From NCBI GenBank assembly GCA_000004985.1, contig GG738897.1: a stretch of DNA of 64,000 nt; one strand, given 5' to 3'. The notes under the pieces were generated by a model, which saw nothing but the letters and a program-made list of their open reading frames with translations, was not told the DNA's origin and did no database searches. Made by a program: the position numbers and the translations under genes. The stretch comes from Naegleria gruberi (taxonomy: Eukaryota). Of the stretch, positions 55,777-57,564 are shown piece by piece (the first letter of the stretch is position 1; every line of letters starts with the position of its first letter).

Positions 55777-57564
55777 ATGAAACAGATGAAGAGATCCATT
55801 GTACAATTAGCCAAGGCTCAAACTAAGTCTACCACTGCTGCTGCCTTCTCCAACACCTTTGTTAATCAACAACGTACCAAGAAGGTTGATGTTAAGGTCA
55901 AGAAACTTTTCATTGGTGGTGAATTTGTTGAAGGAAAGGAAGGAAAGAAATTCTCTGTATACAATCCAGCAACTGAAGAAGAAATTTGTCAAATTTCCGA
56001 AGCCACTGCTGCTGATGTTGATGATGCAGTTCGTGTTGCTAGAAATACCTTTGAAAACGTCTGGAGAAATTATGCACCATCCCAACGTGTTCGTCTCATG
56101 AATAAGTGGGCTGATTTGATTGAAAGAGATGCTGATTATATTGCTGATTTAGAATGTATTGATAATGGTAAGCCACGTGATATGGTCAGAAATGTTGACA
56201 TTTACTTGGTTCTCCAATGTATTAGATACTATGCTGGTTGGGCTGATAAGATTAACGGTAAGACCATTCCAGTTGACTCTGACTTCTTTGCCTACACTCA
56301 AAGAGAACCAGTTGGTGTTTGTGGTCAAATTGTTCCATGGAATTTCCCATTGGTTTGTTTCTTTTTAATTATTTTCTAATTATTTTAATTTTTTAATTTA
56401 ATTTTTTTTTTAAATATTTTAATATTTTAATTAAATTTATCAAGTTGATGGCTGTAAGTAGAATAGTAAAGAATTATGAAATAATTAACACAAATTCTAT
56501 AGACTTGGAAGTGGGCACCATGTTTGGCAACTGGTAACGTTTCCATTTTGAAGACTGCTGAACAAACTCCATTGTCTGCATTGTACGTTGCTAAATTGGC
56601 TCATGAAGCTGGATTCCCACCAGGAGTCATTCAAGTTTTGAGTGGTTTTGGTGAAACTGTTGGTAATGCATTGACTCATCACATGGATGTTGATAAGATT
56701 TCATTCACTGGTAGCACTGAAGTTGGTAAAAAGATTCTTGGAGCTTCTTCCAAGACTAATTTGAAGAGAGTTACTCTTGAACTCGGTGGTAAATCAGCAT
56801 TGATTGTCATGGGTGATGTTAAGGATCGTGCCACTCTTGAAAAGGCTGTCAATATTGCCAATCAAGGTACCTTCTTCAATCAAGGTCAAGTTTGTACTTG
56901 TTCATCTCGTGTCTTTGTTGCCTCCAATATTTATGAAGATTTCTTGAAGATTTCTAAGGAACTTGCTGAAAAGAGAGTTGTTGGTAACCCATTCGATTCC
57001 AAGACTGAACAAGGTGCTCAAGTCAGTGAAGAACAATTCAACAAGATTATGAGCTACATTGAATATGGTAAGAATAATACTAGACTTGTCACTGGTGGTG
57101 AACGTGCCCATGCCAAGGGTTACTTTGTTAAGCCAACTGTCTTTGCTGATGTTGAAGATACTCATAAGATTGCTCAAGAAGAAATCTTTGGACCAGTTAT
57201 GAGTGTTTTGAAGTTTGATCATGATAATGTTGAAGATGCTATCAGAAGAGCCAACAAGTCTGAATATGGTTTGGCTGCTGGTGTCATTACTCATGATCTC
57301 AACCAAGCTCACAGAGTTGTAAGTTTATTATTTTTAAATTTTTTCTAATTTTCACTAATTATCATTCATTTACAGACATCGGGTCTTAGAGCCGGAACTA
57401 TTTGGGTAAACACATGGAATGCTTTCTTCAGTAATATTGAATTCGGTGGTTACAAGATGTCTGGTCAAGGTAGAGATTTGGGTGAACATGCTTTGGATGA
57501 ATATACTGAAAATAAGTCTGTCATTACTCATATCCCAGGTTTGAAACGTCCATACAAGTTTTAA
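55777..57564 (+). CDS. aldehyde dehydrogenase (NAD+), ALDH1/2 (mitochondrial-type) family, 529 aa, 4 exons: 55777..56352, 56445..56453 (9-nt microexon), 56503..57318, 57376..57564
   Basis: N-terminal presequence-like MKQMKRSIVQLAKAQTK. Motifs [79 protein letters not shown], catalytic Cys region NQGQVCTCSSRVFV, EEIFGPVMSVLKF, then ...AHRV|TSGLRAGTIWVNTW and GYKMSGQGRDLG. Intron 1 is 56353..56444 (gtttgt...tcaag), intron 2 is 56454..56502 (gtaagtag...tctatag), and intron 3 is 57319..57375 (gtaagttt...tttacag). All are in phase 0. Confidence 0.85.

Follow-up and report, generated by a model that had tools for sequence, protein, structure and literature searches.

The window, that is, the whole 64,000-nt stretch of Naegleria gruberi NEG-M contig GG738897.1 that was analyzed, carries on its plus strand a gene that is predicted from its sequence to encode an aldehyde dehydrogenase (ALDH) of the ALDH1/2 class in four exons. 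Joined in the order 55777-56352, 56445-56453, 56503-57318 and 57376-57564, these exons translate into 529 residues. Exon 1 (55777-56352) comprises 192 codons, from the ATG to ...VPWNFPL, and its translation corresponds to residues 1-192 of XP_002672467.1. A mitochondrial presequence is probably included at its N-terminus, and the gene product is probably located in mitochondria. The 3' end of exon 1 reads ...GTT CCA TGG AAT TTC CCA TTG, the last base being 56352. Exon 3 (56503-57318; 816 nt, 272 codons) opens with ACT TGG AAG TGG GCA CCA TGT TTG GCA ACT GGT AAC, extends from TWKW... to ...AHRV and carries both the catalytic Glu (LELGGKS) and the catalytic Cys (QGQVCTC). It is separated by intron 3 (57319-57375; 57 nt, phase 0, GTAAGT...TTACAG) from exon 4 (57376-57564), which starts with TSGLRAGTIWVN and ends with ...KRPYKF followed by a TAA stop codon.

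Between exons 1 and 3 lies the feature of interest, a microexon of only 9 nt (exon 2, 56445-56453, phase 0), which is below the limit of 15 nt applied here to internal coding microexons. Its sequence, TTGATGGCT, encodes Leu193-Met194-Ala195. Upstream of it is intron 1 (56353-56444; 92 nt, phase 0), which is very A+T-rich and has the donor GTTTGT and the acceptor TCAAG. Downstream is intron 2 (56454-56502; 49 nt, phase 0), which begins with GTAAGTAG, ends with CTATAG and has the consensus donor GTAAGT; a branch-point-like TTAAC motif is situated about 15 nt 5' of its acceptor TATAG. The immediate context of the microexon is thus AAG/TTGATGGCT/GTAAGT, with introns of 92 nt and 49 nt on either side. 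The microexon had been proposed in a first-pass annotation of this DNA, and the coordinates, lengths and splice dinucleotides given there for it and for both flanking introns are correct base for base. Likewise, the assertion that Leu-Met-Ala is encoded by the 9 nt at 56445-56453 between TCAAG and GTAAGT can be read directly in the window.

The spliced product is a full-length member of its family. The Pfam Aldedh profile (PF00171) matches it with 571 bits against a gathering cut-off of 23, and all of the profile positions (1-461 of 461) are covered. NAD(P)+-dependent aldehyde oxidation is the activity predicted for a member of this family. Human mitochondrial ALDH2 (1nzx, 5l13) is about 55% identical to the N. 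gruberi protein over the full length, and the motifs PWNFP, LELGGKS and NQGQVCTCSS are found opposite PWNFP, LELGGKS and NQGQCCCAGS of the human enzyme (1nzx_A). Equivalents of Asn169, Glu268 and Cys302 (human ALDH2 numbering) are all kept. Unlike human ALDH2, the N. gruberi protein has a 4-residue insertion near 'GDVKDRATLEK'. The best protein matches are heterolobosean: the product of a Logan contig (93% identity), followed by the proteins of Naegleria lovaniensis (76%) and Willaertia magna (66%).

We then considered what the three residues contribute. In the alignment, Leu-Met-Ala is found opposite Leu173-Met174-Gln175 of mature human ALDH2, directly after Asn169-Phe170-Pro171. Both Leu173 and Met174 are residues of the ALDH2 ligand-binding tunnel (PMC10650273). 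Judging by the alignment, the microexon residues are therefore expected to fall on the helix that lines the substrate tunnel, just after the catalytic-Asn motif PWNFP, and a gene model without the 9 bases would drop three residues of this helix. Leu193 and Met194 are invariant in an alignment of 10 sequences. The first-pass annotation had held that the length of ALDHs is invariant at this point and had suggested aligning the spliced protein with ALDH2, and both ideas proved sound. The homologue set consisted of 126 ALDH sequences, three of which lack the motif (two of the three are short fragments). In all 123 motif-bearing homologues, PWN[F/Y]P and WK are separated by exactly five residues, and Met is the third of the five in every one of them (123/123). 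The N. gruberi product shows this five-residue spacing with Met in third place only when the microexon is included. The human ALDH2 chains 5l13_A and 1nzx_A align with the spliced protein at E ~3e-173 with no gap at the microexon.

To see how many other ways of splicing the region there are, we enumerated, for 56300-56560, all GT-AG combinations that leave the frame open. This yielded 12 single-intron and 8 double-intron models. Every one of the single-intron models (12/12) loses at least three residues relative to ALDHs, and among the 8 double-intron models only one, with introns 56353-56444 and 56454-56502, yields the gap-free ALDH motif. Hence neither another acceptor nor a single long intron, the two outcomes that had been named as able to overturn the splice model, offers a canonical GT-AG alternative that restores the alignment. 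The microexon layout also exceeds chance expectation: an AG-N9-GT arrangement coding for Leu-Met-x occurred in 36 of 200,000 mononucleotide shuffles of the 150-nt region (~2e-4), while any stop-free AG-N9-GT arrangement occurred in 6.7% of shuffles of the same region. We consider it very probable that the 9-nt microexon supplying Leu-Met-Ala is a real, constitutive exon of the N. gruberi ALDH gene.

Several other readings of the region have to be weighed against this one. The simplest is that the whole of 56353-56502 is excised as a single 150-nt intron, so that a protein without Leu-Met-Ala is the sole form or the major isoform. Such an intron would have a canonical pair of ends (GTTTGT...TATAG), its removal keeps the frame, and neither the contig scans nor the peptide search turned up an N. 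gruberi transcript to contradict it. However, the resulting gap occurs in no homologue (the spacing is five residues in 123/123), and the Pfam score falls by 14 bits, from 571 to 557. The residues lost would be those opposite Leu173 and Met174, which in ALDH2 belong to the substrate tunnel (PMC10650273). Moreover, a Leu-Met-x 9-mer flanked by AG and GT at this exact place is expected in only ~2e-4 of shuffles, the nine bases match the orthologous Naegleria codons with synonymous changes only, and the public gene model includes them. Taken together, these observations make the single 150-nt intron quite improbable as the source of the main product. An in-frame minor isoform lacking Leu-Met-Ala is nevertheless conceivable, since skipping keeps the reading frame.

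The closest alternative among the double-intron models, one of the 8 that preserve the frame, replaces the microexon with a 21-nt exon (56445-56465), for which GTAAAG at 56466 would serve as donor. The protein would then have LMAVSRI at this point, exceeding other ALDHs by four residues, and a 4-residue insertion is present in 0 of 123 homologues. The Pfam score is 9 bits lower (561.8 bits), the weaker GTAAAG would have to be preferred over a perfect GTAAGT 12 nt upstream, and the product differs from the public protein; we regard this exon as highly unlikely. Just as hard to maintain is the view that a pseudogene or an assembly artefact is present here, its apparent introns being inactivating insertions, for which nothing speaks beyond the unusual layout. 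Against it, the spliced reading frame is intact over 529 codons with all the catalytic residues, and the locus is the only close N. gruberi copy retrieved in the searches. The sequence is also reproduced independently by two ENA metagenome contigs: L004 has 98.6% nucleotide identity and contains the microexon together with an identical intron 2, while the exon 1 product of L010 shows 99% protein identity. Since the locus recurs in these independent contigs, assembly error is ruled out.

The possible splice forms can be told apart by diagnostic strings. Inclusion of the microexon is represented by the 27-mer TTCCCATTGTTGATGGCTACTTGGAAG and by TTGTTGATGGCTACT, whereas skipping (56352 joined to 56503) is represented by TTCCCATTG joined to ACTTGGAAG and by the 21-mer TTCCCATTGACTTGGAAGTGG. 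The junction of the 21-nt exon corresponds to GGCTGTAAGTAGAATAACTTGG. Half-spliced molecules would be recognized by CCATTGTTGATGGCTGTAAGT and TTCCCATTGTTGATGGCTGTAAGTAG if intron 1 is out and intron 2 is kept, or by TCAAGTTGATGGCTACTTGG and TTTATCAAGTTGATGGCTACTTGGAAG if intron 2 is out and intron 1 is kept. The scan of metagenome and metatranscriptome contigs gave no matches to the spliced or to the skipped junction, and the degenerate coding sequence of the gap-free motif gave none in the metagenome contig scan. A search with a junction-spanning peptide of 159 aa retrieved no N. gruberi transcript fragment, the best match having 70% identity.

Indirect support comes from an intron-free contig of a relative. 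L001, a 1601-nt Logan contig from run SRR16842400 with 87-88% nucleotide identity to the window, has no interruption at any of the three intron sites and reads ...TTC CCA CTT CTC ATG GCT ACC TGG AAA TGG... across the region of the microexon. It is most simply explained as a transcript of a sister species; in principle, it could also come from the genome of a relative whose gene lacks introns. When exon 1 alone was used as the query of a protein search, genomic fragments from two sources were retrieved, a near-identical strain (P0127) and a more distant Naegleria (P0128), and none from the species of L001. The nine bases themselves are TTG ATG GCT in the window, CTC ATG GCT in L001, TTG ATG GCC in N. 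lovaniensis, TTG ATG GCA in N. fowleri, CTT ATG GCC in Naegleria sp. L007 and TTA ATG GCA in Willaertia. Thus, all the substitutions that distinguish the window from the five related sequences in these nine bases are synonymous.

The first-pass annotation had also implied novelty, on the grounds that exons of this size are rarely annotated and easily missed by gene finders. This part does not hold, because the reference protein already has the three residues. An exact look-up found the 529-aa translation to be identical to EFC39723.1, XP_002672467.1 and UniProt D2VTV9, labelled 'aldehyde dehydrogenase 2 family [Naegleria gruberi strain NEG-M]'. Neither the skipped-exon protein nor the versions starting at the second Met have an exact match in a collection of 15 billion proteins, in which the microexon version alone is present. 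When we searched the window for GT/GC-AG exon chains that spell the public protein, the result was the four-exon model with the 9-nt exon, and among the two-intron GT-AG models the microexon model alone spells XP_002672467.1. As the public protein contains Leu-Met-Ala, the microexon is already part of the reference annotation and, judging from this identity, is not new. Coding microexons of 9 nt are besides a well-described class, so the discovery value is nil. Literature searches, which also covered the accessions and the SRA run, found no mention of a Naegleria microexon or of this gene. The finding shows the reference gene model for this N. gruberi member of the ALDH2 family to be correct, and its added value is only comparative, consisting in a lineage-specific microexon and local intron turnover.

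As to how so short an exon may be recognized, the introns of the gene are themselves short (92, 49 and 57 nt), and pairing of splice sites probably takes place across the introns (intron definition), a mode in which there would be no minimum exon size. With only 9 nt between the intron 1 acceptor and the intron 2 donor, the two introns are probably spliced out sequentially. Intron 2, whose GTAAGT donor is perfect, would most likely be excised first, which would make the 9 nt part of the 816-nt exon; intron 1, whose donor GTTTGT is weak, could then be removed as an ordinary intron. The order of removal may thus be set by the weak donor beside the microexon. This donor (56353-56358) is atypical: among the 22 introns of heterolobosean orthologues there are 15 GTAAGT, three GTATGT, two GTAATT, one GTAGGT and one GTTTGT donor, and no donor but the last has T at +3. 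The window as a whole does not help to define a local consensus. Counts of GTAAGT and GTTTGT in it are not significantly above those in shuffles and are thus uninformative in this respect, and a de novo survey of short A+T-rich introns in the window gave too few loci for a splice-site consensus. RNA structure prediction for 56333-56522 revealed nothing beyond shuffles (fold z = -0.97), which lends no support to a special recognition mechanism.

To place the microexon in an evolutionary context, we compared intron positions in the window (56300-56560) with those in the corresponding regions of L002 (3780-3910), L003 (3590-3830), L005 (2020-2260) and L007 (1680-1800). The two N. gruberi introns in this region, PL/LMA and LMA/TW, follow residues 192 and 195, respectively, both in phase 0. 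Willaertia magna has one intron only, P/LLMATW, at the equivalent of residue 191, also in phase 0, which puts it one codon 5' of intron 1 in N. gruberi. N. fowleri has two introns, AQI/VP in phase 1 and LAT/GN in phase 0. The latter alone is present in both copies of the N. lovaniensis gene, and the former in the metagenomic Naegleria sp. L007. None of the three N. gruberi introns (0/3) is common to N. fowleri or N. lovaniensis. Leu-Met-Ala has no intron on either side in these two species or in L007; in all three, the nine bases lie inside an ordinary exon. Altogether, the five heterolobosean taxa have five intron positions within 21 codons, at residues 185 (phase 1), 191, 192, 195 and 205 (phase 0).

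This distribution has a bearing on the age of the microexon. Because the other Naegleria keep the nine bases within a normal exon, the microexon would have arisen in the N. gruberi lineage; on the evidence of the intron positions it appears to be specific to this lineage rather than an ancient conserved microexon. The scatter of positions suggests that this region is a local hot spot at which introns are gained, are lost or slide. A young microexon could have formed if intron 2, which is present in N. gruberi only, was newly inserted 9 nt 3' of an intron of the same age or older; we give this scenario an even chance. No introner-like repeats were found when the three introns were compared by BLAST with the window. 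If the microexon is indeed young, the locus would lend itself to studying how introns are gained or slide and what the minimum exon length is under intron definition. The intron turnover around the microexon could be of interest for work on the gain and loss of introns in protists that have few of them.

The alternative microexons of animal neurons depend on SRRM4 or PRP-40, are regulated and tissue-specific and usually reside on protein surfaces. The N. gruberi exon resembles them in being very short (27-30 nt or less) and in having a size that conflicts with exon definition. In contrast to the neuronal microexons, it is expected to be constitutive and is located in the catalytic core. We know of nothing in a unicellular heterolobosean that would suggest an SRRM4-type regulator.

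A further parallel is provided by the constitutive 9-nt coding microexons of plants, which are found in AP2-domain genes and in invertase (glycoside hydrolase 32) genes (Yu et al. 2022, PMC8831610). These share with the N. gruberi exon the size, the internal position, the canonical splice sites and a location in the core of a conserved motif. For both, omission of the exon keeps or nearly keeps the reading frame, so that gene finders can miss it, and sequential removal of the flanking introns is a likely mechanism. Of the two introns beside a plant microexon, it is the upstream one that is retained more often, as reported also for the 9-nt microexon of potato invertase (PMC8831610), and the downstream-first order proposed here for N. 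gruberi would fit this pattern. Yet there are differences. Throughout the land plants, these microexons are conserved and of ancient origin, whereas that of N. gruberi seems confined to its own lineage; those of AP2 and invertase genes are in phase 1, whereas the N. gruberi microexon is in phase 0. Moreover, unlike in the plant cases, the flanking introns of the N. gruberi exon are very short (92 and 49 nt), and the reference annotation did not miss the exon.

Some additional observations were made on the loci compared and on the window. N. lovaniensis has two near-identical ALDH copies, on scaffolds PYSW02000031.1 (L002) and PYSW02000059.1 (L006), with the same introns and with a Kelch-repeat gene upstream and Med22 downstream; they represent either uncollapsed haplotypes or a recent segmental duplication. 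One N. fowleri model, KAF0982956.1 (553 aa; VFQX01000007.1, L005 1001-1192), has a first exon of 3 nt (ATG) followed by a 189-nt intron. This first exon looks like an annotation artefact; a second N. fowleri ALDH model, CAG4708821.1, has 530 aa. Directly 3' of the N. gruberi ALDH gene there is an 862-aa open reading frame (57695-60283, plus strand) with a signal-peptide-like N-terminus (MRTQILCIFIINAILLAITT...). The downstream neighbour in both N. fowleri and N. lovaniensis is Med22, so that synteny is broken on the 3' side of the N. gruberi gene. Finally, the GC skew of the 64,000-nt stretch, calculated in 2-kb windows, reaches +0.30 at 14001-16000 and ranges from -0.10 to -0.20 throughout 22001-36000.
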